This document shows positions 1 to 15,000 of a stretch of 24,498 bases of DNA, one piece after another. Made by a program: the position numbers and the translations under genes. Position 1 is the stretch's first letter. Each line of letters starts with the position of its first letter. The notes beneath the pieces are model-generated. The model saw only the letters and a program-made list of their open reading frames with translations, was not told the DNA's origin and ran no database searches. This DNA comes from a virus (taxonomy: Duplodnaviria > Heunggongvirae > Uroviricota > Caudoviricetes), in the IMG/VR virus record IMGVR_UViG_2684622579_000003. The stretch is one strand, 5' to 3'.

Positions 1-1053
1 TTACGGGGTAATGCCAACCGCTGCCGCCACTTTGTCGCCACTTGGCAGCGTTGCCAGAGGATTGAAACGGAGCGCCGTTTCCAGATGATCCGGTGCCAGA
101 TGTGCGTAACGCATAGTCATTTTTATATCGTGGTGTCCGAGAATTTTTTGTAAAGCCAGAATGTTTCCACCCGACATCATGAAGTGCGCCGCAAACGTAT
201 GGCGCAGAACGTGTGTGAGTTGACCGCGAGGGAGCACGATAGACGTTTTTTCCATCACGGATAAAAATTGAAAATAGCAGTCTGTGAAGAAATTGAACCC
301 ATCAAGCGCCATGATCTCTTCGTAAAGCTCTTTACTGATAGGGATGCTTCTGTTTTTCTTCCCCTTCGTTCTTACAAAGGTAATTCGGTATTTGGTCACC
401 TGTGAGCGGGTAAGATTTACGGCTTCTCGCCAGCGTGCGCCTGTGCTTAAGCATATCTTAACTACCAGTGCCAGAATTGGGTCCTGACGTTTGCAATCAG
501 CTAGTAATTCAACAATCTGCTCATGGGTAAGCCATGCCATCTCTTTTTCTGCGATGGTGAATTTTCGCATGTTCTCCAGTGGGTTCGGATACGACCATTC
601 GCCCAGGCGGGATAGTTCGCTAAAAACACTACTTAGATAGCTTTGCTCCAGGTTAATGGTGACCGGGCTTGCTCCTTTCTTCCATTTCTCACTGAAGTAG
701 ATCTCACCTGTCAGGCGTTTATCTCGATAGTGGGCAAACATTTTAGAGGTTAGATCAGTTGCAAGGGGATTGCCCAGAGCGTCAACCATCAGCAGCAATT
801 TGTCATAGACATGCTGCCCAGCAGTCAGAGATTTACCATGTAGTTTGAACCATAGCTCAACCACGTCTTTCAGTGTTCGACGATCCACTGATTCACCCAG
901 CCAGGGCTTTGCTTCGGTTTCTTCCATCGTGTGACGCTCAAAAGCCAGTGCTTCGCCTTTGGTGGCGAATTGTTTACGCACACGACGCCCACTACGTCCG
1001 GCGGGGTAACATTCGCAAAGCCATTTTCCTGTGGTGAGTTTTCGTACTGCCAT
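1..1053 (-). CDS. int: Tyrosine recombinase / phage integrase (P2/186-type), 350 aa; stop codon is the first 3 bases of the window
   Basis: Full ORF on minus strand. C-terminal catalytic region has the integrase-type signature (HVLRHTFA...H.D...TMRYAHL with the terminal Tyr). Position downstream of cI matches P2/186 layout. Confidence 0.9.
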   Translation of the reverse strand: MAVRKLTTGKWLCECYPAGRSGRRVRKQFATKGEALAFERHTMEETEAKPWLGESVDRRTLKDVVELWFKLHGKSLTAGQHVYDKLLLMVDALGNPLATDLTSKMFAHYRDKRLTGEIYFSEKWKKGASPVTINLEQSYLSSVFSELSRLGEWSYPNPLENMRKFTIAEKEMAWLTHEQIVELLADCKRQDPILALVVKICLSTGARWREAVNLTRSQVTKYRITFVRTKGKKNRSIPISKELYEEIMALDGFNFFTDCYFQFLSVMEKTSIVLPRGQLTHVLRHTFAAHFMMSGGNILALQKILGHHDIKMTMRYAHLAPDHLETALRFNPLATLPSGDKVAAAVGITP

Positions 1054-1058
1054 AATAA

Positions 1059-1078
1059 AGCCCTCATATCAGAGGGCT
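1059..1078 (-). terminator. Hairpin (AGCCCTC / loop / GAGGGCT) followed on the minus strand by TTTATT, directly abutting the int ATG
   Basis: 7-bp perfect inverted repeat at 1059-1065 / 1072-1078 read directly from sequence; on the minus strand it sits between the KAP stop and the int start, with a short U-tract. Confidence 0.4.
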
Positions 1079-1139
1079 AAATTTAACTGTATGTTTGACC
1101 AGTGGTCAATGTATGGTTTAGTTTATTCAAACAATGCTT

Positions 1140-2657
1140 TTAATCAAATGATGTGGCCAGTTCAATTAATTCAATGTAATTATGTAAGGCATAAAAAGAT
1201 GTATTCAGACCATTCTCTATAAGGGCTCCTTGCAAATACTTTATAGCTGTATCACCATCAATAGGGCCTTGTTGAGATATAATCATTAGTGAATTTTGCC
1301 CATTGTTTTTTATACTTGATTTAAGCATGTTTATATTATTAATAAAATACAATGCAACATCTAAGTAATTTATTAATGTTAAATTTATTTTGGGCTCGAT
1401 CTGTGAGATGAATAATCTACTGCTCGCCGTTCTATAGATATAATTGACACCTATTCTTTGCTGATTTGTATCAAGATTTAATTCAAGGATGGCTTGAGAA
1501 ACACCTTTTAAATTGGAGCTTTGCTTTATCGAATCAGTGAAACGTTGTGCTGCATTTCTTCGACCAATTAGTCCATCTATAATTTGACGATCCTTATCAT
1601 ATATAATCATTAGCGAAATTATAAAAATATAATCTACTTTCTTTTTGACTAAATCAGATTTAAGAATGTCTATTAACCTTTCAGTATTTCGGATTGAGTC
1701 TCTTAGATTTAACCCAAATGCTTCAAATACGTTGGAAATATTTATTGAAAAGTCTTCTAATGTTGCTGTTAGTGGGTATGTTTTTGATGTGATATTTTCA
1801 AAATCGGTACCAATATAATCACCAACAACACCATTAATTAAATCTTTAAGTTCAGGTTGTTTTAAAGTAAATCTTCTATGAAAAAAACGGCCTAAATAGT
1901 CATTTGCGGAAAAATCATTACCGTAAACATTCTTGATTGAATGTTGTAATTGATCTGTGTCAGTAGCAATAATAAAGACAAAATTTTTAATATCGAATAT
2001 ATGTTTAACAATCTCTAAAAGAGAAATTGCATAATCTGGCCTGCATCTGTCTAATTCATCTATAAAGATAAATATAGGACATGAAAAACTATTTTCATAT
2101 GCCAACCTAGACCATAACGTTAGTTCTTTTTTTAATACCTTAATGCTCTTCAGTTTTTCCTGGTGTTCCTTCAGCATTATTAATGAGGCTTCTTTGGCTA
2201 TATCACCTACGTTATCTACTCCTGCATAAGTCTTGATTAGGCCAGATATGATTTCAGGTAGAACACCTTTTGTAAAGCGTCCGATAGCATGGCCGCTTTG
2301 TATCAATCGAGCATCAAGTTTTCCTGCATATGTTTGCAATTGTTGTGACAAAGAAGAAAAAAGGGTTAAAAATGCATCATCAGAAAAGTCTTGCTTCCAG
2401 GCATCAATGTAAACGCATGGGTGTGCATCTTTTATTGAGTTATAAAATCTCTTTATGAAAAAACTTTTACCAGCTCCCCATTCTGCATTAAGGTTGATTA
2501 CCGTGTTGTTCTTTTGCCCCTTTTCCTTAAGATAAAAATATAGATATTCTGCATAGTGTCTCCGATTAAGTTTGTCTTTGGAAAGAATTTCCTCTTCGTC
2601 GTCTAATATAAAGGTAGTTTCTTCATCCCAGTTCCAATTACAATCACCACATTTCAC
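1140..2657 (-). CDS. KAP-family P-loop NTPase (505 aa), probable GTG start, AT-rich cargo gene
   Basis: Walker A embedded in the KAP-typical context NLNAEWGAGKSFF; Walker B-like IFIFIDELDRCRP (hhhhDELDR). GGAG about 8 nt upstream of the GTG. GC content visibly lower than the phage backbone. Confidence 0.7.
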   Translation of the reverse strand: MKCGDCNWNWDEETTFILDDEEEILSKDKLNRRHYAEYLYFYLKEKGQKNNTVINLNAEWGAGKSFFIKRFYNSIKDAHPCVYIDAWKQDFSDDAFLTLFSSLSQQLQTYAGKLDARLIQSGHAIGRFTKGVLPEIISGLIKTYAGVDNVGDIAKEASLIMLKEHQEKLKSIKVLKKELTLWSRLAYENSFSCPIFIFIDELDRCRPDYAISLLEIVKHIFDIKNFVFIIATDTDQLQHSIKNVYGNDFSANDYLGRFFHRRFTLKQPELKDLINGVVGDYIGTDFENITSKTYPLTATLEDFSINISNVFEAFGLNLRDSIRNTERLIDILKSDLVKKKVDYIFIISLMIIYDKDRQIIDGLIGRRNAAQRFTDSIKQSSNLKGVSQAILELNLDTNQQRIGVNYIYRTASSRLFISQIEPKINLTLINYLDVALYFINNINMLKSSIKNNGQNSLMIISQQGPIDGDTAIKYLQGALIENGLNTSFYALHNYIELIELATSFD

Positions 2658-2682
2658 TATGAAGTCTCCATGAAAAATTTAC

Positions 2683-3606
2683 TTAATGTAAACAACTTAT
2701 AATAACTTTTGCAATAAACTCAATGTCTGTAAGCGAACATTCAAAAGAGTGATTTTGGGATGAAATATAAACTCGTCCTTTAGGTAGTCGAGTTATCATT
2801 CTAAATGAATTCTCTCCATCAATATTTACTAGCCACTTACCATCATGTACATCTTTAAAACCCATTTCACATATTAATTCAGAGTCTTCGGTAGATACTA
2901 CGAATGCATTTTTTAAATTGGAAGGTAGAAAGCATGGGTCAAATAAATATGAGCCATCATTTATTAACTTGCCATTGATTAATACTTTTTTCACTAATGT
3001 TAAAGTATCTTTATTTTTTGCGTTTTTCATTTCTCCTGTACCAAATGAAATCCATTCAATAGAATGGCCCGTTTCTATTGCACACTGCAAAACCCAGTCT
3101 GCAGGAAAAATGTCACGCATGTATCGTGTGGCTAATGTGCTTTTTGAAATACCTAGGTGATCAGCTAATGCTTGGCGCGTTTTGTAACCGTAAGCCTCGA
3201 CAATTCGTTCTATTGTTGCCTTACCCCCTCGGTTAAAATTCATGAGTTTTTCATTATCGAACTTTATAGTGGGAATGTATACTTCATTGCAAAGGCCATT
3301 AACGGCATGTTTTTCAGAATATTGCTCTGATGAAGGAGCAGTATCTGAACCAAGAACTAACCATTCAATTGATGCTCCTGTTTCTATGGAACATATAACA
3401 ACCCAATCTGCAGGAAAGGTATTACGTGCATATCTGTTGGCCATAGTACTTTGGGAAATACCTAGATGATTACATAATGCCTGTCGTGACTTGAAGCCAT
3501 AGGCTAGGAGTATACGCTCAATAACTTTTTGCCCTCCACGATTCTGCATAACTATTGCTTTCAGATCGTTTTTGATATGGCTAAATTTTAATTTTTGAGT
3601 TGACAT
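2683..3606 (-). CDS. CI-repressor paralog with tandem duplicated N-terminal HTH domain plus CI-like C-terminal domain (307 aa)
   Basis: Two consecutive copies of the module IER..AYG.K.RQAL..HLGIS.ST.A.RY.R..FPA.WV..C.IETG.S.EW, followed by a C-terminal region alignable to the C-terminal half of the adjacent 191-aa CI (..DG.Y.FD..FLPS.LKN.FV....S...IC...F.D..DGKW...ID.E...R.ITRLP.GR...). Internal Met at residue 122 (codon 3241-3243). Confidence 0.75.
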   Translation of the reverse strand: MSTQKLKFSHIKNDLKAIVMQNRGGQKVIERILLAYGFKSRQALCNHLGISQSTMANRYARNTFPADWVVICSIETGASIEWLVLGSDTAPSSEQYSEKHAVNGLCNEVYIPTIKFDNEKLMNFNRGGKATIERIVEAYGYKTRQALADHLGISKSTLATRYMRDIFPADWVLQCAIETGHSIEWISFGTGEMKNAKNKDTLTLVKKVLINGKLINDGSYLFDPCFLPSNLKNAFVVSTEDSELICEMGFKDVHDGKWLVNIDGENSFRMITRLPKGRVYISSQNHSFECSLTDIEFIAKVIISCLH

Positions 3607-3656
3607 ATTTTTTACACCACAACAAATGCTTTACCAAGCATAAAAACATTCCTATA

Positions 3657-4232
3657 TTACTCAAAGTACTTAACTGTTATGCTTATAATTTTTCCAATAA
3701 TTTCGATTTCTTCTTTTTTACATTCGAAAGCCCTATTTCCACCTTCAACTAAGATTCTTCCACCAGGTAAACGAGTGATATCGCGGATTGTTACTTCGGC
3801 ATCAATACTTATTACCCATTTGCCGTCACGAATATCGTTAAACTCTTTATCGCAAATAAAAACGGAATTGTTATCGGTGATTACAAACGGATTTTTGAGC
3901 GTAGATGGTAGAAATTCTTTATCGAAAATATAAAAACCATCTTCCTGCAAGGTTCCATCAGATAATACATATTTAACGACTTCCATAGTATTTGTATTAC
4001 CTGAAGTTTGCTTTGAACCATGTCCGGTCGTGAGCCAGTTAAGCGAGGCGCCCGTTTCAAGTGCGCACTGGATTACCCATTCAGCAGGGAATGAGTCACG
4101 CATATAGCGTGTGGCGAGAGTACTTTTAGAGATTCCTAAGTGATCGCACAACGCCTGTCGAGTCTTGAAGCCATATGCTTCTACCATGCGCTCTATAGCG
4201 CCTCGTCCGCCTTTCTCCAAATTCATGGTCAC
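3657..4232 (-). CDS. cI: Immunity repressor CI, phage-186 type (191 aa)
   Basis: Length and sequence recall 186 CI (N-terminal HTH ..EAYGF...LA.HL.IS.S.L..RY.R......CALETGA.L.WL.TG). Located immediately upstream of int and divergent from apl/cII. GGAG-like RBS upstream of the ATG. Confidence 0.85.
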   Translation of the reverse strand: MTMNLEKGGRGAIERMVEAYGFKTRQALCDHLGISKSTLATRYMRDSFPAEWVIQCALETGASLNWLTTGHGSKQTSGNTNTMEVVKYVLSDGTLQEDGFYIFDKEFLPSTLKNPFVITDNNSVFICDKEFNDIRDGKWVISIDAEVTIRDITRLPGGRILVEGGNRAFECKKEEIEIIGKIISITVKYFE

Positions 4233-4250
4233 TCCAAGTGAACTTTTGTC

Positions 4251-4279
4251 TTGACGATTTCATTATGCGATCGTATGTT
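4251..4279 (+). promoter_or_regulatory. Sigma70-like rightward promoter (TTGACG - 17 bp - TATGTT) in the cI/apl switch region; candidate lytic promoter pR
   Basis: Hexamers and 17-bp spacing read directly from sequence, about 70 bp upstream of the apl ATG. The 119-bp cI-apl intergenic region is the expected 186-type switch. Confidence 0.5.
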
Positions 4280-4351
4280 TATGATGTTCACAAAATACAA
4301 ACGATCCGTATTCGTCCTGATTAATCAACATTAAACGAGGAATGTTGCATC

Positions 4352-4573
4352 ATGAAACCTAACATTTCAATCACTCTTACCACGCCTCATGTGACTATTG
4401 AACGTTATAGCGAGCTGACAGGGCTATCCATCGATACTATCAATGACATGTTGGCTGATGGACGTCTTATCCGTCACCGTCTGCGGAAAGATAAAAAACG
4501 CGAAAAAGTGATGATCAACATAGCAGCCATGACCGTTGATGCGCTTTCAGAATGCAATCTAAACCTTAATTAG
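4352..4573 (+). CDS. apl: Apl/Cox-like excisionase and transcriptional regulator (73 aa)
   Basis: Small basic protein encoded first in the rightward operon, divergent from cI, directly preceding cII as in phage 186. Confidence 0.65.
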
Positions 4574-4599: not shown

Positions 4600-5115
4600 T
4601 TGACCATGTTTGATTACCAAGTTTCCAAACACCCGCATTTTGATGAAGCCTGTAGAGCTTTTGCACTTCGTCACAATATGGCGAAGCTGGCAGAACGTGC
4701 AGGAATGAATGTCCAGACTCTGCGAAACAAACTCAACCCAGATCAACCGCATCAGCTCAATGCGCCAGAAATCTGGCTGCTTACCGATCTGACTGAAGAT
4801 TCAACGCTGGTAGATGGCTTTCTGGCACAGATTCACTGCCTGCCATGTGTACCGATTAATGAGGTGGCAAAAGAGAAACTGCCGCATTACGTCATGAGTG
4901 CAACTGCAGAGATAGGGCGTGTCGCGGCAGGTGCGGTTTCTGGCGATGTAAAAACCAGTGCAGGCCGTCGTGATGCGATCAGCAGCATTAACTCTGTTAC
5001 ACGACTGATGGCGCTGGCTGCTGTTTCATTGCAGGCCCGTTTACAGGCTAATCCTGCGATGGCGAGTGCAGTTGATACCGTGACTGGCCTCGGTGCTTCA
5101 TTCGGTTTGCTGTGA
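4600..5115 (+). CDS. cII: CII-like lysogeny establishment regulator, 186 type (171 aa)
   Basis: Size and position match 186 CII. Possible HTH in the region [21 protein letters not shown]. The Ala/Ser-rich C-terminus is typical of a degradation-prone tail. Confidence 0.7.
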
Positions 5116-6156: not shown

Positions 6157-7010
6157 GCACCATCCTGAAATGGGCGGGTAATAAAACCGCCATTATGCCA
6201 GAACTGAAAAAATACCTTCCTGCTGGCCCGCGACTGGTTGAACCTTTCGCGGGTTCTTGTGCTGTGATGATAGAGACGGATTACCCCAGCTATCTTGTTG
6301 CGGATATTAATCCTGATTTAATCAACCTCTATAAAAAGGTTGCTGCTGATTGCGAGGCGTTTATATCTCGTGCCAGAGCTTTATTTGAGGAAGCAAACAG
6401 GGAGGTGGCTTATTACAACATAAGGCAGGAGTTTAATTACTCCACTGAAATTACTGATTTCATGAAAGCGGTATATTTCCTGTATCTCAATCGTCATGGT
6501 TACCGTGGGTTATGTCGCTATAACAAGAGCGGGCATTTCAACATTCCCTACGGGAATTATAAAAATCCGTATTTCCCTGAAAAAGAAATTCGCAAATTTG
6601 CAGAAAAAGCCCAGCGAGCAACGTTTATCTGCGCCAGCTTTGATGAAACGCTGGCGATGTTGAAGGCGGGGGATGTGGTGTATTGCGATCCGCCTTATGA
6701 CGGTACGTTTTCCGGCTATCACACTGATGGCTTCACTGAGGATGACCAGTATCACCTGGCATCCGTTCTTGAACATCGATCATCTGAAGGTCATCCGGTC
6801 ATTGTTTCTAACAGTGACACATCCCTGATTCGTTCGCTGTATCGCAATTTCACTCACCACTACATCAAGGCAAAACGCAGCATCGGCGTGTCGGCTGGCG
6901 AGAGTAAATCTGCAACAGAAATCATTGCTGTTTCCGGGGCGCGCTGCTGGGTGGGATTTGATCCTTCGCGTGGCGTGGATAGTTCTGCTGTGTACGAGGT
7001 GCGTGTATGA
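6153..7010 (+). CDS. dam: DNA adenine (N6) methyltransferase, Dam-like orphan MTase
   Basis: Motif I (EPFAGSCAV) near the N-terminus and catalytic motif IV DPPY (VYCDPPYDG); N-terminal KWAGNK typical of Dam. Start placed at the ATG at 6153; the track ORF begins further upstream at 6093. Confidence 0.85.
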
Positions 7011-9421
7011 GTCATGATGATATGAGCAACTCTAGCGGCTTTAACGAGGCCGCTGCAGCATTTTCATGGAACGGCCCGAAAAAGGCCATTAACCCTTATC
7101 TGGACCCGGCGGAAGTTGCGCCGGAGTCTGCACTTTCAAACATGATCACTCTGTACGCTGCCGATAACGAGCAGGAACAGCTGCGCCGCGATGCACTGAG
7201 TGAGCAGGTCTGGGAGCGTTATTTCTTTAATGAATCCCGTGATCCTGTCCAGCGCGAAATGGAGCAGGATAATCTCATTAGTCGGGCAAAGCTGGCGCAT
7301 GAGCAGCAGCGTTTTAACCCGGACATGGTCATTCTGGCGGACGTCAGCGCCCAGCCCACCCACATCAGCAAGCCGCTGATGCAACGTATCGAATACTTCA
7401 GCAGCCTGGGCAGGCCAAAGGCTTATTCCCGCTATTTGCGTGAGACGATTAAGTCATGTCTGGAGCGACTGGAGTATGTACGCGACAGTCAGCTATCCGC
7501 TTCTTTCCGTTTTATGGCAAGCCATCAAGGGCTTGAGGGCCTGCTGATCCTGCCTGAAATGAGTCAGGATCAGGTAAAACGCCTGTCCACCTTGGTAGCA
7601 GCGCATATGAGCATGTGTCTTGAGGCCGCTTGTGGTGATTTGTATGCCTCCGATGACGTTAAGCCAGAAGAAATCCGCAAGACATGGGAAAAGGTGGCAG
7701 CGGAAACCCTGCGTCTGGATGTTATCCCGCCTGCGTTTGAGAAACTCCGTCGGAAAAGAAACCGCCGCAAACCCGTGCCCTATGAACTCATACCGGGTTC
7801 GCTGGCACGTATGCTTTGCGCCGACTGGTGGTATCGAAAATTGTGGAAGATACGTTGCGAATGGCGGGAAGAGCAGTTGCGTGCTGTCTGCCTGGTCAGC
7901 AAAAAAGCATCTCCCTATGTCAGCTATGAAGCAGTGACGCATAAACGTGAGCAGCGCCGCAAGTCGCTGGAGTTTTTCCGTTCTCATGAACTGGTGAACG
8001 AAGACGGCGACACGCTGGATATGGAAGACGTGGTAAACGCCAGCAGCAGCAACCCGGCGCACCGCCGCAATGAGATGATGGCCTGTGTTAAAGGTCTGGA
8101 GCTTATCGCGGAAATGCGTGGTGACTGCGCCGTTTTCTACACCATTACCTGTCCGTCACGTTTCCATTCTACGCTCAATAACGGCAGACCAAACCCAACC
8201 TGGACAAATGCGACGGTAAGACAAAGCAGCGATTATCTGGTCGGCATGTTTGCTGCATTTCGTAAGGCTATGCACAAAGCCGGGTTGCGCTGGTATGGCG
8301 TGCGGGTGGCTGAGCCGCACCATGACGGTACTGTGCACTGGCATCTCATGTGTTTCATGCGCAAAAAAGACCGCCGCGCCATTACTGCATTGTTGCGTAA
8401 GTTTGCCATCCGTGAAGACCGCGAGGAACTGGGCAATAACACGGGTCCACGCTTTAAGTCTGAGCTGATAAACCCGCGCAAAGGAACGCCGACAAGCTAC
8501 ATCGCGAAATACATCAGTAAGAACATTGACGGACGTGGTCTGGCTGGCGAGATCAGCAAGGAAACGGGTAAATCCCTGCGTGATAACGCCGAATACGTTA
8601 ATGCCTGGGCGTCTCTGCATCGTGTTCAGCAGTTCCGCTTCTTTGGTATTCCGGGGCGTCAGGCGTACCGTGAACTTCGCTTGCTGGCTGGTCAGGCGGC
8701 AAGGCAACAGGGTGACAAAAAAGCAGGTGCGCCGGTACTGGATGACCCGCGCCTTGATGCCATCCTGGCTGCCGCTGATGCTGGCTGTTTTGCCACCTAC
8801 ATCATGAAGCAGGGCGGCGTACTGGTTCCCCGCAAATATCACCTTATCAGAACAGCTTATGAAATTAACGAAGAGCCGACCGCTTATGGCGATCACGGTA
8901 TTCGTATTTATGGCATCTGGTCACCCATTGTACAGGGCAAGATCTGCACTCATGCAATGAAATGGAAAATGGTTCGTAAGGTCGTTGACGTTCAGGAGGC
9001 GGCAGCCGACCAGGGCGCTTGCGCCCCTTGGACTCGTGGCAATAACTGTCCCCTTGCTGAAAATTTGTACCAACAAGGGAAAGACAAATCAGCTGATGGG
9101 GATACCAGAACGGATATCACCCGTATGGATGACAAGGAGTTGCACGATTACCTGCACAGTATGAACAAAAAAGAACGCCGGGAACTGGCTGCAAGGTTAC
9201 GCCTGGTGAAACCGAAACGGCGTAGAGACTACAAACAGCGAATTACAGACCATCAACGACAGCAGCTCGTCTATGAACTGAAGTCCAGAGGATTTGATGG
9301 CAGCGAGAAAGAGGTCGATTTACTCCTTCGCGGCGGCAGCATTCCGTCAGGAGCAGGCCTGCGTATTTTCTATCGGAACCAGCGTTTGCAGGAAGATGAT
9401 AAGTGGCGGAACCTGTATTAA
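7007..9421 (+). CDS. A: Replication initiation protein A (rolling-circle HUH endonuclease), 804 aa
   Basis: HUH motif ([10 protein letters not shown]) and paired-tyrosine motif ([10 protein letters not shown]). Size and position match P2/186 gene A. Start overlaps the dam stop (ATGA). Confidence 0.9.
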
Positions 9422-9574: not shown

Positions 9575-9763
9575 ATGCAGGACTATTTTTTGGAGTCTTT
9601 GAAGCTCCAACGCATTGATTTTTTTCTTAAGCTTGTAGCGGCTAGTGAGTGTAGTGATGAAGAGAAGGGGCTGGCCCTGCAGTGGGTTTCTGAACTGACA
9701 GATGAACTCATGGCAAAAATCAGAAGCCACGAATACAACCGCTCAATGGATGTCATCAGCTGA
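9575..9763 (+). CDS. Small hypothetical protein (62 aa from the ATG at 9575), first gene of the putative SOS-controlled operon
   Basis: AGGAGG RBS at 9564-9569, then ATG at 9575, within track ORF 9473..9763. Lies downstream of the LexA box. Confidence 0.55.
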   Translation: MQDYFLESLKLQRIDFFLKLVAASECSDEEKGLALQWVSELTDELMAKIRSHEYNRSMDVIS

Positions 9764-9773
9764 GGGGACTTTT

Positions 9774-10007
9774 ATGCGCATTGAAATAATGATCGATAAA
9801 GAGCAGAAGATTAGCCAGTCTACCCTGGACGCCCTTGAATCAGAGCTTTACCGCAATCTGCGCCCCCTGTATCCCAAAACGGTAATTCGTATCCGTAAAG
9901 GTAGCTCTAACGGTGTGGAACTGACCGGACTGCAACTGGACGAAGAAAGGAAACAAGTGATGAAAATTATGCAGAAGGTGTGGGAAGACGACAGCTGGCT
10001 GCATTAA
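9774..10007 (+). CDS. dinI: DinI-family protein (77 aa)
   Basis: MRIEI.I.K ... L..EL.R ... KIMQKVWEDDSWL closely resembles E. coli DinI (MRIEVTIAK ... ETWES.DDWF). Start at the ATG at 9774 within track ORF 9702..10007. Confidence 0.75.
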   Translation: MRIEIMIDKEQKISQSTLDALESELYRNLRPLYPKTVIRIRKGSSNGVELTGLQLDEERKQVMKIMQKVWEDDSWLH

Positions 10008-10391
10008 GAAACGTTGCTGGCGTCTGAACTTGCTTCTGGCGTCAGCAAGGTTGAACAACGAGCTATGCGAGGCGTTAGCCATCTGATCAAAAGACATCAA
10101 ATATCATATTGTATATCGTGGTCAAACGCTGGAAACAATCATTCCCGATCAGAGGGGCTTCTTTCAATGTCCAAAAGAGTGAGATAGAGGATACAGGATG
10201 GGAAGAGCTTTTGATTAATTATCGTCCAAGTTTTTCAAAAGCTTCTTATCTGGCGGTCGATACATGATTTACTGTTGGATATGGTATTTAAAATTAATCT
10301 TTACACTGTGGTATATGCAGAATAGGATATTATCAATACAATCAAACTGTTTTCATACGGTTATTAATATTGCAATGTTATAGGTAATGTC

Positions 10392-11510
10392 ATGTATCTT
10401 TTCAAGTATTACCGTCCGGACTTCTTCTTCGAGAAAGCTATTCGTTATAATGAATTATATTTTTCCGCTCCTGCGCAATTGAATGATCCCAATGATCTCA
10501 ATATAGATTATCGCTTCGATAATAAATTGAAATTATGGGATATTTTATTGCGTTCTCCTTGCGATAAATCCTATAAAAATTTGAGTCACATATTGGATTT
10601 GAGTAATTTGAAAATACATAAGGGATTGAATCGTATTTTTAGAGGAAAAAAAATAAAAAGTAGCATTGAGTCATTAGATAGCCTGTTTGACTCACACGTT
10701 GATGAGATACGTAAGATCATAGATGATGGTTTACTACCTATCAATGTGATTAATTCTGCTATTTATGGAAATATTCCTGAACCACGCCAATATTTAGTTT
10801 CACTTTGCGAGAACAGTATCAAAGAAAGGTTGTATAGGAAAATAGTTCCTGCAGTATTCAGTGTGTCATTTTCAGCTAATGCGTTAGATCGTATGATGTG
10901 GGCGCATTATGCTGCTGGCTTTAGTGGTTGTGTTGTGATTTATGAAACGCAGGATTTTAATATTGATGGTATATCCTATACTGGAATGAAGCTAAGAGAA
11001 AATTTATTTTCATCAGATAAATTTAATTTTCCAGTTAAGCCAATAAAATATAGTAATCAGGCTAAAGAGGTTTCACTTCTAGACCCAAGCGCAAATGTTG
11101 CAGAGTTATTTTTAACTAAAAATAGATTTTGGAGATATGAAGCTGAATATCGAATGTTTATTCCGGAGGCAAATGCAGGAATAGGGAGTGAGCGGCATGT
11201 TCAAAGACGCGTAAATCGAAATATTGGACATATTTTTCATCATGATGCTAATGTTGTTAAAGGGATCATTTTTGGTCCTAGAATGTGTGAAATGAAAAAA
11301 GAAAGCATATGGAATTGTATCAAGTCAAATATGGAGAATTCAAATTCAACAATATGTTATTTTTTTGACTCTGAGTTATCAGCATCAGGAAAGATTACTA
11401 TTTCAAAAGGGCAACGAGCGGAAAAAATGAAAAATTTCACTTTGTTCAGGAACAAGTTAAGTCAGACGGAAATGGCTAAAGTTTTGAAGGAAATTGGCAT
11501 TACGAACTAA
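10392..11510 (+). CDS. DUF2971-like protein (372 aa), AT-rich cargo gene at the tin/old-equivalent locus
   Basis: N-terminal signature LFKYYRP....... ELYFSAPAQLNDPNDL matches the DUF2971 hallmark as I recall it. Very low GC; sits between replication gene A and cos, where P2 carries tin and old. Confidence 0.6.
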   Translation: MYLFKYYRPDFFFEKAIRYNELYFSAPAQLNDPNDLNIDYRFDNKLKLWDILLRSPCDKSYKNLSHILDLSNLKIHKGLNRIFRGKKIKSSIESLDSLFDSHVDEIRKIIDDGLLPINVINSAIYGNIPEPRQYLVSLCENSIKERLYRKIVPAVFSVSFSANALDRMMWAHYAAGFSGCVVIYETQDFNIDGISYTGMKLRENLFSSDKFNFPVKPIKYSNQAKEVSLLDPSANVAELFLTKNRFWRYEAEYRMFIPEANAGIGSERHVQRRVNRNIGHIFHHDANVVKGIIFGPRMCEMKKESIWNCIKSNMENSNSTICYFFDSELSASGKITISKGQRAEKMKNFTLFRNKLSQTEMAKVLKEIGITN

Positions 11511-11576
11511 CCTAACAACAGTGCATGCCTATGCTGCCTGAATTTGCATGACCGTTTGAGGATCGTTTTTGCTAAG

Positions 11577-11604
11577 GCCCGCCAGAACTGGCGGGCTTTT
11601 GCGT
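11577..11604 (+). terminator. Rho-independent terminator (GCCCGCCAG-AA-CTGGCGGGC followed by TTTTG)
   Basis: 9-bp GC-rich perfect stem with U-tract, read directly; about 65 bp after the DUF2971 stop. Confidence 0.7.
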
Positions 11605-12196: not shown

Positions 12197-13237
12197 TTAC
12201 TCAGAAATATCTAAGTTGTAAGATTCAAAGCAAATCACTTTTTCACCTAGCCAGTTGTTCAGCTCTTGCAGCCGCTTTTGCAGTGGCATCAGTTCATTGC
12301 GGACAAACACTCGACTAGCCTTCTCCACATCCCCAAACCCCCCGACATTATTAGGCATTATCCCCATCATTTGTGGCGGCACACGATGCGCCGCCATCAT
12401 GTCGTCCCGGCTCACGTTCTTGATATTCAGGAACTCATCCTTCGCCGCCACTTCTGACAACGGGATAATCTGAAGCCCGTCCTTTTTACCGTTAGGCGAG
12501 TACATAAACAGGTTACGGAAGTTACCAGGACCTTTGGCGCTTTTCATCGCATTGCGGAGGTTGTTCACATCCTCCTGGTTCTGCGCAGCATCGGTCATGT
12601 ACATGATGAAGCCTGCATGACTGCCGTTAATGTAATACTTGCGGCGGAACAGCGTGGCGGACTCGTTGAGCAGAGCTGACGGAATGGCAGAAAGATAACC
12701 GGGCAGGCCGTAGATCTCCTGGTTAATGTCCGGTTCCATCAGATGAAAAATGCTGCCTTTCGTGAACTGATACGGCTGGGTTGTCATACCGTATTGCACA
12801 AACCAGTAGGTATCCAGGTCTAACCCGCGTCGGGTGTATTTTGCCAGTGCAGGCTCAAGGGCGATAACTTCACCGAAGCGGTTCGTGCGTTTCTCCAGGT
12901 AGGCGTTACCAAAAACCAGATAGTCCTGCACAAAACGCGAAAAAGCCTGCTGGCTGAGCAGCGGGTGAGGGATGTAGGTGCTGGTCAGAATGTTGCACTT
13001 CACTGCAATCGGTGAGCTGTGATGCACGGCGGCGCGGAAGGTTCGCGCCAGTCCGTCGAAACTCACAGGCGGCTCATACCAACGATCCATCTGTACGCAT
13101 TCCACATAGTCCAGCAGTTCGCGGCGGTCCAGAACAGGAACGGGATCACCGAAGCTGAATGCTTCGGCTGAAGTCTGGCTTTTATGCTGGATCTGTTTCG
13201 TCGACGCAGCGCGGTTCTTCTTACTCTTTCCCATCAA
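12197..13237 (-). CDS. Q: Portal vertex protein (P2 gpQ-like), 346 aa
   Basis: Size, position adjacent to cos, orientation opposite to the O-N-M operon, and ATGA coupling to the terminase gene match P2 Q. Confidence 0.85.
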   Translation of the reverse strand: MMGKSKKNRAASTKQIQHKSQTSAEAFSFGDPVPVLDRRELLDYVECVQMDRWYEPPVSFDGLARTFRAAVHHSSPIAVKCNILTSTYIPHPLLSQQAFSRFVQDYLVFGNAYLEKRTNRFGEVIALEPALAKYTRRGLDLDTYWFVQYGMTTQPYQFTKGSIFHLMEPDINQEIYGLPGYLSAIPSALLNESATLFRRKYYINGSHAGFIMYMTDAAQNQEDVNNLRNAMKSAKGPGNFRNLFMYSPNGKKDGLQIIPLSEVAAKDEFLNIKNVSRDDMMAAHRVPPQMMGIMPNNVGGFGDVEKASRVFVRNELMPLQKRLQELNNWLGEKVICFESYNLDISE

Positions 13238-15000
13238 AAAATCTCCACAATATTGCTGGTATTGGCGGACTCGCCCTGCAGCGGTTCGTTAAACAGTGCG
13301 TGCATTGTTGCCCAGGCCAGATCGGCATGGCTGGCTTCTTCGCTGCGGCTGGCTTCATAGGTCGGGCGGTTGCCACTGGCAGTGGTAGCGCGACGGATTG
13401 CCATAAATGACTGCGCAATGTCGGTGTGCCCGGCGTCAAACTCCAGACGGCGGTGGCTGATAATGTCGTAGGCCTTGAGTACCAGGGCGTTTTTAACGTT
13501 GGGGTTGTAGACAAACTCCCTGACGGCAGGAAAAAACGCTTTCACGTTCTCGTAAACCCCGTGACCGACGCCGGTCGAGTCGATGCCGATATAGGTCACG
13601 TTGTACTGTTCGGTCAGTTTTTTGATGGCGTCAGCCTGGGCGCGGAAGTCCATCCCGCGCCACTGGTGACGCTCAAGAATGCGGAACTTACCACCCGGCA
13701 CGGCTGGCGGAGCCACCACCACGCATCCGGCACTATCGCCGTTCTGCGTACCTTTTGCCGGGTCATAACCGATCCACACCTCGCGCCAGCCAAACGGGCG
13801 CAGCGCCAGTGCATGAAAGTCGGTCCAGACTTCCCAGCTGTCCACCATGCACGCCTGCAGCTCGCTGAGCGGAAACACGGACGCGAGATCGTCCACAAAC
13901 TCGCACATCAGCAGGTTCTGGTATTCGTCCGGGCTGTACTCCATGCGCAACTGGTCAAGGTCGAACAGGTTACAGCCGCCGCGCACCGCATCTTCCACGG
14001 TGACTATCTGGCGGTATTGCCCGTCTGCGCACAGCAGGCCGGGGGCCAGATTGCTGTGGGACAGGTCGATGTCCACCTTATCGGCTTTGTTGCGCCCACG
14101 GTTGAACAGCGCACCGGACCAGAACGGATAAGCACTGTGTGTCAGGCTGGATGGCGTGGAAAAATAGGTTTGTCGCCATTTCTTGTGAATAGCCATACCG
14201 GAAGCCACTTTGCGCAGCTCCTGAAATTTCGGTATCCAGAAATATTCATCCAGATACAGGTTGCCGTGGTAACTCTGGGCCGTGCGGGCATTGGTGCCGA
14301 GGAAGTAAAGCGTGGCTCCGTTAGGAAGCACCATCGGATCGCCTTTTAGCTCCACCTCGACTTCTTTGGCGAAGTCGATGATGTATTGTTTAAAGACGTG
14401 GGCCTGAGCCTTACTGGCAGAAAGGAAAATCTGGTTACGTCCGGTAAGCAGGGCGTCAATCAGGGCTTCACGGGCAAAATAGAAGGTTGCGCCGATCTGG
14501 CGAGACTTCAGCAGGTTGCGGATGCGGTTGGTTTTTCCGGCTTCCCACCAGTGGCGCTGGTAGTTGAACATGGAGGAATGGAAGATTTCTTCCAGCTTCT
14601 CAATCTGCTCATCGGTGAAAACATTCTTTTCCGGCTGACGGCGTGGGCCTTTGTTGCGGTTGGCGACGTTAGGGTTTAAGTCGGCTTCGTTACCGCCATT
14701 GTTAAACTTGCCGATCCGCGCGTGGCGCTCCGACTGGCGCGCCAGCAGGTCAATTTCTTTGAAATCTTTCCCTTCTTTGTGCTCCTTCATAATGAGCTGG
14801 CAGTAGCGTGCGGCGGTGGTGAGCTGCATCTGATCCAGCGGCCCATAGTCACCCCACTTGTCGCGTTTCTTCCAGCTGTGAACGGTTGCAACTTTCTCGC
14901 CCAGCATTTCAGCAATGCGGGCTACACGGTATCCCTGAAAGTACAGCAGCATGGCCTGCCGACGGGGATCGAGATCTGCGGGTGTCAGTGTGGTGTTCAT
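13234..15000 (-). CDS. P: Terminase large (ATPase) subunit (P2 gpP-like), 588 aa
   Basis: 588-aa ORF upstream of the portal on the same strand, divergent from the scaffold/capsid operon, as in P2. Confidence 0.85.
   Translation of the reverse strand: MNTTLTPADLDPRRQAMLLYFQGYRVARIAEMLGEKVATVHSWKKRDKWGDYGPLDQMQLTTAARYCQLIMKEHKEGKDFKEIDLLARQSERHARIGKFNNGGNEADLNPNVANRNKGPRRQPEKNVFTDEQIEKLEEIFHSSMFNYQRHWWEAGKTNRIRNLLKSRQIGATFYFAREALIDALLTGRNQIFLSASKAQAHVFKQYIIDFAKEVEVELKGDPMVLPNGATLYFLGTNARTAQSYHGNLYLDEYFWIPKFQELRKVASGMAIHKKWRQTYFSTPSSLTHSAYPFWSGALFNRGRNKADKVDIDLSHSNLAPGLLCADGQYRQIVTVEDAVRGGCNLFDLDQLRMEYSPDEYQNLLMCEFVDDLASVFPLSELQACMVDSWEVWTDFHALALRPFGWREVWIGYDPAKGTQNGDSAGCVVVAPPAVPGGKFRILERHQWRGMDFRAQADAIKKLTEQYNVTYIGIDSTGVGHGVYENVKAFFPAVREFVYNPNVKNALVLKAYDIISHRRLEFDAGHTDIAQSFMAIRRATTASGNRPTYEASRSEEASHADLAWATMHALFNEPLQGESANTSNIVEIF

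Follow-up and report, generated by a model that had tools for sequence, protein, structure and literature searches.

The left 5.2 kb of the 24,498-nt viral DNA stretch IMGVR_UViG_2684622579_000003 (the whole stretch is called the window below, and coordinates given without a locus label are window positions) represent the lysogeny region of a 186-like (Peduoviridae) prophage. Between the immunity repressor gene cI and the integrase gene int, this region carries two further genes, one encoding a KAP-family P-loop NTPase and the other a CI-type repressor with two helix-turn-helix (HTH) modules in tandem. Do these two genes form a single defence module, as a preliminary description of the sequence had suggested, or do they stand side by side for separate reasons? 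With a probability that we put at roughly 60%, the KAP NTPase is stand-alone cargo and the tandem-HTH protein is a separate, stranded repressor, the two having been joined by recombination at a cassette site between cI and int of a 186-like prophage.

The cassette at the cI-int junction

Four open reading frames (ORFs) of the lysogeny region are encoded on the minus strand, namely int (1-1053), the KAP gene (1140-2657), the tandem-HTH gene (2683-3606), and the resident cI (3657-4232). The intergenic gaps are exactly 50 bp (cI/tandem-HTH), 25 bp (tandem-HTH/KAP), and 86 bp (KAP/int). The ORF map and Pfam searches reproduced the two genes, these gaps, the Walker motifs of the NTPase, and the two HTH modules of the repressor just as they had first been described. 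In phage 186 (NC_001317), cI and int overlap by 1 nt and are annotated as a single lysogenic operon, which bears out the adjacency from which the preliminary description started. The commonest E. coli relative (L014) has the order cI, a 63-amino-acid (aa) ORF of the YdcA family, int. Homology between the window and L014 breaks at positions 1115 and 3616 (blastn), and these breakpoints identify the block of two genes (1116-3615, minus strand), which is absent from L014, as a true cassette relative to the L014 backbone and hence, as had been proposed, as extra DNA at the junction.

Comparison with a second relative, Klebsiella phage 4LV2017, placed breaks at 3039, 3614, and 4338. Homology to this phage covers 3039-3614 and resumes at 4338, the cox anchor, where the right-side homology of the phages H15 and WP4 also starts. 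The promoter-operator region of these tandem-HTH phages is replaced in the window by the resident cI and its switch. Both comparisons share a junction at 3614-3616, 8 nt upstream of the start codon of the tandem-HTH gene. In addition, the window is colinear from 42 to 3201 with locus L006 at 77% DNA identity, a stretch that includes int, the KAP gene, and most of the segment encoding residues 122-307 of the tandem-HTH protein.

Across the loci compared (L001, L002, and L004-L006), recombination breakpoints separate the HTH of CI from its C-terminal domain (3039 and 4007) or lie immediately upstream of int. KAP identity rises and falls with that of the neighbouring CI C-terminal domain (Spearman 0.69) and not with that of Int or of the HTH, which remains conserved and has the higher G+C content, and the linkage between CI C-terminal domain and cargo also holds for cargo other than KAP. 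Based on these breakpoints and this linkage, we define the swappable unit as the CI C-terminal domain together with the downstream cargo. The G+C content agrees with such a unit. It is 0.319 for the KAP gene and 0.355 for the tandem-HTH gene, compared with 0.526 for the rest of the window, and the low values extend past 3606 into the resident cI, whose C-terminal half has 0.334 and whose HTH half has 0.513. A mobile unit of this composition also accounts for the AT-richness of CI C-terminal domains. Thus the AT-richness of the block, which had been read as a mark of separate acquisition, is real but is not specific to the cargo.

Seventeen complete E. coli genomes have prophages beside rcdA that are 99.8-100% identical to the lysogeny region, among them the genome of O127:H6 strain E2348/69, a standard laboratory strain of EPEC. 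These 17 are the only ones among 5,426 E. coli genomes with the full cassette. Among about 350 E. coli genomes with partial matches only, all eight listed match the N-terminal HTH region of the tandem-HTH gene. An independent stack of repressors was found in locus L009, which has the order cI, KAP gene, pseudogenised CI gene (7841-8373 of L009, with in-frame stops and a frameshift), further cargo including an 8xMP-domain protein, and int. This second stack with its decayed CI suggests that cassette recombination produces stacked repressors as a side effect and that these can decay.

A related region is present in 1,336 of the 5,426 complete E. coli genomes. In the relatives sampled from this set, the interval between int and the cox/cII pair is variable and its two anchors are conserved, which is the pattern of a cargo hotspot. 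The left anchor is the 350-aa integrase (1-1053, minus strand; Pfam Int_N 3e-32, Phage_integrase 7e-22), whose gene is 96-98% identical at the DNA level to relatives with any cargo. On the right, the plus strand encodes a Cox/Apl-like excisionase-repressor (4352-4573; phrog_575, 1.4e-30) and a CII-like activator (4600-5115; Pfam Phage_CP76, 1.1e-43). The sampled contents of the interval include the 63-aa YdcA-family ORF alone, hypothetical genes, an ATP-dependent nuclease, other KAP NTPases, insertion sequence (IS) elements, an AAA ATPase (accompanied in one genome by a DUF4276 protein), and SNIPE-associated, DUF4041, or DUF2971 proteins. For example, the slot of Escherichia phage vB_EcoM-813R9 is occupied by a DUF4041/T5orf172 protein that matches the PADLOC model of PD-Lambda-1 at 3e-120, and a Salmonella contig has two genes there with GmrSD_N and HEPN_RiboL-PSP domains. 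The cI-int junction is therefore variably occupied, as the preliminary description had asked of a cargo site, and according to these profile matches it holds known types of anti-phage genes in some relatives. PD-Lambda-1 is said to have been validated experimentally by Vassallo et al. in 2022.

The well-known P2 hotspots of E. coli are the gpA-portal interval (tin/old) and Z/fun, and the preliminary description was right that the cI-int site is neither of them. Its impression of an unfamiliar site is not upheld: a cI-integrase hotspot was reported in K139-like relatives of P2 (Rousset 2022, PMC9122126), and in a 2026 census the integrase-primase interval held 8% of the defence systems of P2 (PMC13586616). 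This type of hotspot is already described. The window resembles the P2-like prophage hotspots of these sources in having a short interval, flanked by conserved anchors, in which defence-type genes turn over at a high rate; a cassette that includes the C-terminal domain of the repressor, as here, is not described in the available text of either. As a side observation, a SocA/Panacea-domain antitoxin-like gene is located beyond int and before the attachment site in L006 (7878-8345), L007 (4394-4861), and E. coli H71; the census also counts the interval between int and the attachment site as a minor P2 defence hotspot (PMC13586616).

The tandem-HTH repressor and the resident switch

The tandem-HTH protein has 307 aa and matches Phage_CI_repr twice (3.8e-56) and Phage_CI_C once (1.5e-25). 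It consists of HTH1 (residues 20-88, nt 3343-3549), a linker, HTH2 (residues 122-195, nt 3022-3243), and a C-terminal domain of the oligomerisation type (residues 196-307, nt 2686-3021). The resident CI is a protein of 191 aa with a single HTH (start codon ATG at 4226 in RefSeq), which matches the same two families (Phage_CI_repr 3e-33, Phage_CI_C 7e-27), so that both proteins show the domain combination of a 186-type CI. HTH1 and HTH2 are 90% and 83% identical, respectively, to those of the 4LV2017 repressor, without a single difference in the recognition helices. An L006-type CI is represented in full by residues 122-307, at 76% identity for the HTH and 69% for the C-terminal domain. A start of translation at Met122, which would yield an L006-like single-HTH CI, was considered and is unlikely, as the GGAGG of the L006 cI is replaced in the window by coding sequence without a Shine-Dalgarno.

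A scan of contigs with the single tandem-HTH protein found no relative, but the protein database yielded the family. There, proteins of 290-330 aa with two HTH modules and a C-terminal domain form many clusters, of which dozens at 90% identity belong to Enterobacterales (Escherichia, Salmonella, Klebsiella, Enterobacter, Citrobacter, and others). In 4LV2017, E. coli H15, WP4-S18, a Salmonella contig, and loci L018-L020 (these three carry P0131, a protein that NCBI names from Klebsiella pneumoniae), a tandem-HTH CI gene lies 88 bp from cox with unrelated cargo behind it, and no other repressor gene is present. Homologues in 4LV2017, H15, WP4, L017, and L018 directly abut the switch as the first gene. 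In the window this position is held by the resident cI, and the tandem-HTH gene comes second, 50 bp after it. No arrangement other than that of the window was found to contain the exact 307-aa protein. On this comparative evidence, the tandem-HTH protein is the displaced member of a widespread class of immunity repressors, which serves sister phages as their regular repressor, and not the accessory paralog of cI for which it had initially been taken. In the text consulted of Nilsson et al. 2011 (PMC3448106), neither a duplication of the repressor nor any gene located between C/cI and int is described.

The lysis-lysogeny switch of the window (4233-4351) was delineated by a promoter scan, with a pR-like promoter at 4251-4279 on the plus strand and a pL-like promoter at 4290-4262 on the minus strand placed face to face. 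The best 186-type operator-like site, GTCAC-N5-GTGAA at 4228-4242, differs by one mismatch from the form TTCAC-N5-GTGAA of the 186 sites FL, FR, and pB. A repeated-k-mer analysis of switch regions gave no clear operators for the resident cI. The resident cI, switch, cox, and cII are 92.7% identical to those of L014-type prophages, where the same cI is the only repressor, and on these comparisons the resident cI is cognate to the adjacent switch. We also noticed that the E2348/69 copy differs from the window at 4274, 4284, and 4297 within the pR/pL switch, next to an almost identical cassette; these differences could be operator or promoter variants.

The resemblance of this region to the CI system of 186 extends to the Pfam domains, the face-to-face pR and pL with cox/apl and cII, and the GTGAA-like operator half-sites. 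It differs in that the second protein of the window has tandem HTH modules and is separated from the switch by another cI. Moreover, the putative operator half-sites of tandem-HTH phages lie in the opposite orientation (TGTGA-N8-TCACGA). A candidate operator of the form TGTGA-N8-TCAYGA is conserved in the switches of tandem-HTH phages and has no match in the window, which leaves the tandem-HTH CI without an obvious target in its own prophage.

The two genes are placed such that they could be transcribed with the repressor gene in the lysogen. No terminator-like fold was detected in the 50-bp and 25-bp gaps (z 0.2 and 0.27), and together with the single lysogenic operon of 186 this supports the co-transcription with cI that the preliminary description had predicted. 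Before the start of int, a hairpin with a U-rich tail (1059-1078, minus strand) was found as a terminator-like match, and its 3' arm carries a GAGGG Shine-Dalgarno-like sequence. The 106-nt int leader (1040-1145) folds at -24.1 kcal/mol (z -3.08), with none of 200 shuffled sequences as good, and the hairpin and T-tract are kept in L006 and L014 with sequence changes. This hairpin is probably an attenuator of int downstream of the cargo, acting either as a terminator or at the level of translation. Since it covers the Shine-Dalgarno of int, the cargo lies upstream of an apparent int attenuator, in a position suited to expression in the lysogen. A perfect AT-rich palindrome upstream of the KAP gene (2678-2692), similar to the 186 FL site, was set aside as a chance occurrence, as it is not conserved in other cI-KAP junctions.

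What, then, does the stranded repressor do? Its DNA specificity is likely retained, given recognition helices identical to those of the 4LV2017 repressor, and none of the copies examined has a disrupted ORF, the proteins differing by 0-2 amino-acid changes. The explanation that survives best beside our own, and that we regard as possible, is that the protein is a functionless relic of a recent recombination event, its ORF being intact because it is young, so that only the KAP protein and the resident CI matter. Such a relic would fit the rare and near-clonal arrangement (17 of 5,426 genomes), the confinement of the exact protein to it, the loss of the native upstream region beyond -8, the missing cognate operator, and the stops and frameshifts of the stacked CI in L009. 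It fits less well with an ORF that is intact in all copies examined, with recognition helices unchanged relative to working sole repressors, and with the absence of a terminator between cI and the tandem-HTH gene; furthermore, even without selection for such a role, an intact repressor that is produced would bind to matching operators of infecting phages. A reading that we offer tentatively, and consider somewhat doubtful, goes further in the opposite direction. The tandem-HTH CIs would be an undescribed class of 186-type repressors, acting as a covalent pseudo-dimer with an operator geometry of its own. One of them would have been captured here as an operator-less second repressor, expressed from the resident operon and immunising the lysogen against a second common group of phages that compete for the attachment site, which would amount to immunity stacking by cassette recombination.

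The KAP NTPase and its genomic contexts

Profile searches, one of the checks that had been proposed, assigned the 505-aa product of 1140-2657 to KAP_NTPase (PF07693) with 156.7 bits against a gathering cut-off of 20 (E 1e-45, residues 32-303), and they returned two Phage_CI_repr matches and one Phage_CI_C match for its neighbour. Walker A (AEWGAGKS, residues 58-65, nt 2463-2486, minus strand) has W60, G61, G63, and K64 invariant in 40 homologues, and in the same set all seven residues of Walker B (IDELDRC, residues 199-205, nt 2043-2063, minus strand) are invariant. The C-terminal domain comprises residues 290-505 (1143-1790, minus strand). No hydrophobic segment was detected in the protein, including the region between the Walker motifs (the highest 19-residue Kyte-Doolittle mean is 1.43), which points to a soluble protein. 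Transmembrane helices in or flanking the P-loop domain are reportedly common in prokaryotic KAP proteins, and not obligatory, a statement attributed to Aravind et al. in 2004.

The ratio of nonsynonymous to synonymous substitution rates (dN/dS) is 0.08 for the KAP gene relative to the L006 copy (P0002, Klebsiella-type) and is higher in the C-terminal part, and by this measure the gene is under strong purifying selection. A GGAG ribosome-binding site before it is kept in most of the cI-KAP junctions compared. The changes between E. coli copies cluster in residues 409-462 (1281-1433): of seven amino-acid changes in the copy that diverges most among those examined, five fall there, as do three of four in a second copy. 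This segment may be a variable surface.

Among defence-related profiles in PADLOC, the best match is the single-gene candidate PDC-S20 (model PDLC04959, 8.2e-78, 261 bits, residues 20-389), followed by three further PDC-S20 models, and the protein also matches phrog_8614. The window gene shares with PDC-S20 its best hidden Markov model match and the status of a single gene without a conserved partner, although the PDC-S20 profile leaves the last ~115 residues uncovered. The pairing had been called unfamiliar, and as one of its members is a catalogued single-gene candidate this holds only in part.

The ATPases of three anti-phage systems are related to the 505-aa soluble protein of the window through their cores. 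PifA, which mediates T7 exclusion by the F plasmid, matches in the P-loop core at 1e-16 over KAP residues 26-273, but the similarity is limited to profile positions 15-261 of 720. QatA of the Qat system matches in the NTPase core (7e-14), yet the score of 43.3 bits is far from the equivalog cut-off of 600, and the neighbours are CI and int, with no QatBCD genes nearby. The AlphaFold2 (AF2) model of the KAP protein has a predicted local distance difference test (pLDDT) score of 80.7, and its closest solved fold is RdrA of the RADAR system (Foldseek E 2e-6, TM 0.35-0.39, ATPase core only); the likeness does not extend to the full-length fold, and no gene for the RdrB adenosine deaminase is found nearby. 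A further protein, EF_KAP, combines a KAP NTPase domain with a C-terminal region of unknown fold on a mobile element and gives validated, Walker B-dependent protection against phage (PMC13552941). This likeness is one of published description; EF_KAP differs in being modelled with transmembrane helices, of which the window protein has none, and in its host and element. Another KAP NTPase, 'Reve', is experimentally validated as a defence (PMC13586616).

The genomic contexts of KAP relatives separate this gene from the tandem-HTH repressor. At 79% identity, P0002 (named Klebsiella pneumoniae by NCBI) has the order cI (186 aa)-KAP-int, and the same order is found at 63% in P0020 (Enterobacter hormaechei by NCBI name, cI of 186 aa) and at ~36-38% in E. 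coli. A metagenome contig at 71% has cI (188 aa)-KAP, then further cargo, then int. A Yersinia relative at 51% has a gene for a 327-aa protein between cI and KAP, with int behind, and a Pseudoalteromonas relative (~40% over the N-terminal three quarters) is a lone chromosomal gene. No tandem-HTH gene was found beside any of these relatives, which include at least five independent cI-KAP-int contexts, and no conserved partner gene for KAP was found across the contexts examined. The KAP protein therefore does not need the tandem-HTH gene as a partner. Of 80 distant relatives in species-representative genomes, only four are near a P2-type int or CI and 76 are in non-prophage loci; two distant relatives, from Vibrio and Aeromonas, are flanked by a CII-like match and an integrase of the P2 type. 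Taking profile matches and contexts together, we consider the KAP gene to be probably a stand-alone, single-gene defence gene expressed in the lysogen.

One could instead assign the KAP protein a role in the temperate life cycle of 186-like phages, such as repressor stability, induction, or integration, with no anti-phage function. This is an unlikely alternative, although the gene keeps the same position between CI and int from 79% to ~36% identity in Escherichia, Klebsiella, Enterobacter, and Yersinia, shows strong purifying selection, and co-varies with the CI C-terminal domain. It is missing from most related prophages, the distant relatives are overwhelmingly outside prophages, the same slot holds PD-Lambda-1-type and other defence-like genes, and those members of the KAP family that have been tested to date function in defence (PMC13552941, PMC13586616).

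The opposite proposal, that the KAP and tandem-HTH genes make up one two-gene defence or exclusion system with the CI-like protein as a regulator or sensor, for example of an antirepressor, draws on their spacing of 25 bp on the same strand, their shared AT-richness, their inclusion in one cassette relative to the commonest backbone, and the usual place of prophage KAP genes directly after a CI-type gene whose C-terminal domain they track in divergence; it is very unlikely, since KAP occurs without the tandem-HTH gene at every identity level sampled, tandem-HTH CIs are ordinary immunity repressors with unrelated cargo, the linkage of CI C-terminal domain and cargo is general and not KAP-specific, another gene intervenes between CI and KAP in Yersinia, and PADLOC, in which the KAP family is entered as a single-gene candidate, offers no model that matches the CI. 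Co-occurrence of the pair across unrelated backbones was not seen, as it was found in one near-clonal arrangement only. Of the candidate defence module that had been put forward, the KAP gene with its PDC-S20 match is retained and the pair as a system is not, each gene occurring without the other. As far as sequence comparison goes, the pairing is rare and recent, and on present evidence it is not a system.

A second AT-rich cargo gene was observed elsewhere in the window. It lies in an AT-rich block at approximately 10000-11600, has a G+C content of 0.33, and encodes a 372-aa protein (10392-11510, plus strand) that matches the PADLOC candidate PDC-S31 (9e-24) and, weakly, DUF2971. This gene is located between the replication gene (7007-9421) and a set of minus-strand ORFs (12197-15000), which we take by position to be portal and terminase genes; it would then occupy the classical P2 hotspot between gpA and portal. 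Right after the replication gene, a DinI-like protein is encoded at 9702-10007 on the plus strand (Pfam, 1.3e-22).

A mosaic of cargo and immunity

In the scenario that we favour, a heteroimmune relative would have received, by recombination, a cassette of tandem-HTH CI and KAP genes directly downstream of its cI and switch. The tandem-HTH repressor would thereby have lost its own promoter-operator region and become the second gene of a lysogenic operon, the pL transcript of which would run in the lysogen from cI through the tandem-HTH gene to the KAP gene and be attenuated at the hairpin before int. By analogy with PifA, RdrA, QatA, and the validated KAP-fusion proteins, the KAP protein alone may act as an ATP-dependent sensor or effector of phage infection, with its C-terminal domain as the sensing or effector part. 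The tandem-HTH CI, if translated, would recognise the operators of infecting relatives of the tandem-HTH type, phages that are frequent in E. coli and share the attachment site, and would so provide the lysogen with a second immunity specificity, taking no part in the KAP mechanism.

Several observations weigh against this scenario. The KAP gene stays next to a CI gene down to ~36% identity and co-varies with the CI C-terminal domain, and a functional coupling of CI and KAP would also yield such a constant position and co-variation. A tie of this kind, in which the KAP protein would, for example, guard the preceding repressor through its C-terminal domain against antirepressors, appears to us very improbable. 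PDC-S20 is a computational candidate for which the searchable literature holds no published phenotype, and the C-terminal domain of the KAP protein, which is confidently folded in the model, has no solved or viral structural relative in the libraries searched and gives no hint of an effector. As to the repressor, the candidate operator of tandem-HTH phages comes solely from sequence conservation. The recognition helix of HTH2 is identical to that of the resident CI, which means that the tandem-HTH protein might act on the resident switch instead. The stacked copies are so similar (99.3-100% identity) that they contain too few substitutions for a selection test on the stranded repressor. This gene also has no obvious Shine-Dalgarno, a feature that it shares with its sole-repressor relatives.

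If the KAP protein is found to protect on its own, the catalogued candidate PDC-S20 would become a validated single-gene defence, and the structure of its C-terminal domain would be worth solving. The locus also carries a warning for annotation pipelines, in that adjacent genes in such hotspots need not be one 'system'. With a swappable cassette that is made up of the oligomerisation domain of the immunity repressor and its cargo, whole repressors can become stacked and are then kept or decayed, and this stacking is relevant to the joint diversification of immunity groups and defence repertoires in P2/186-like phages.

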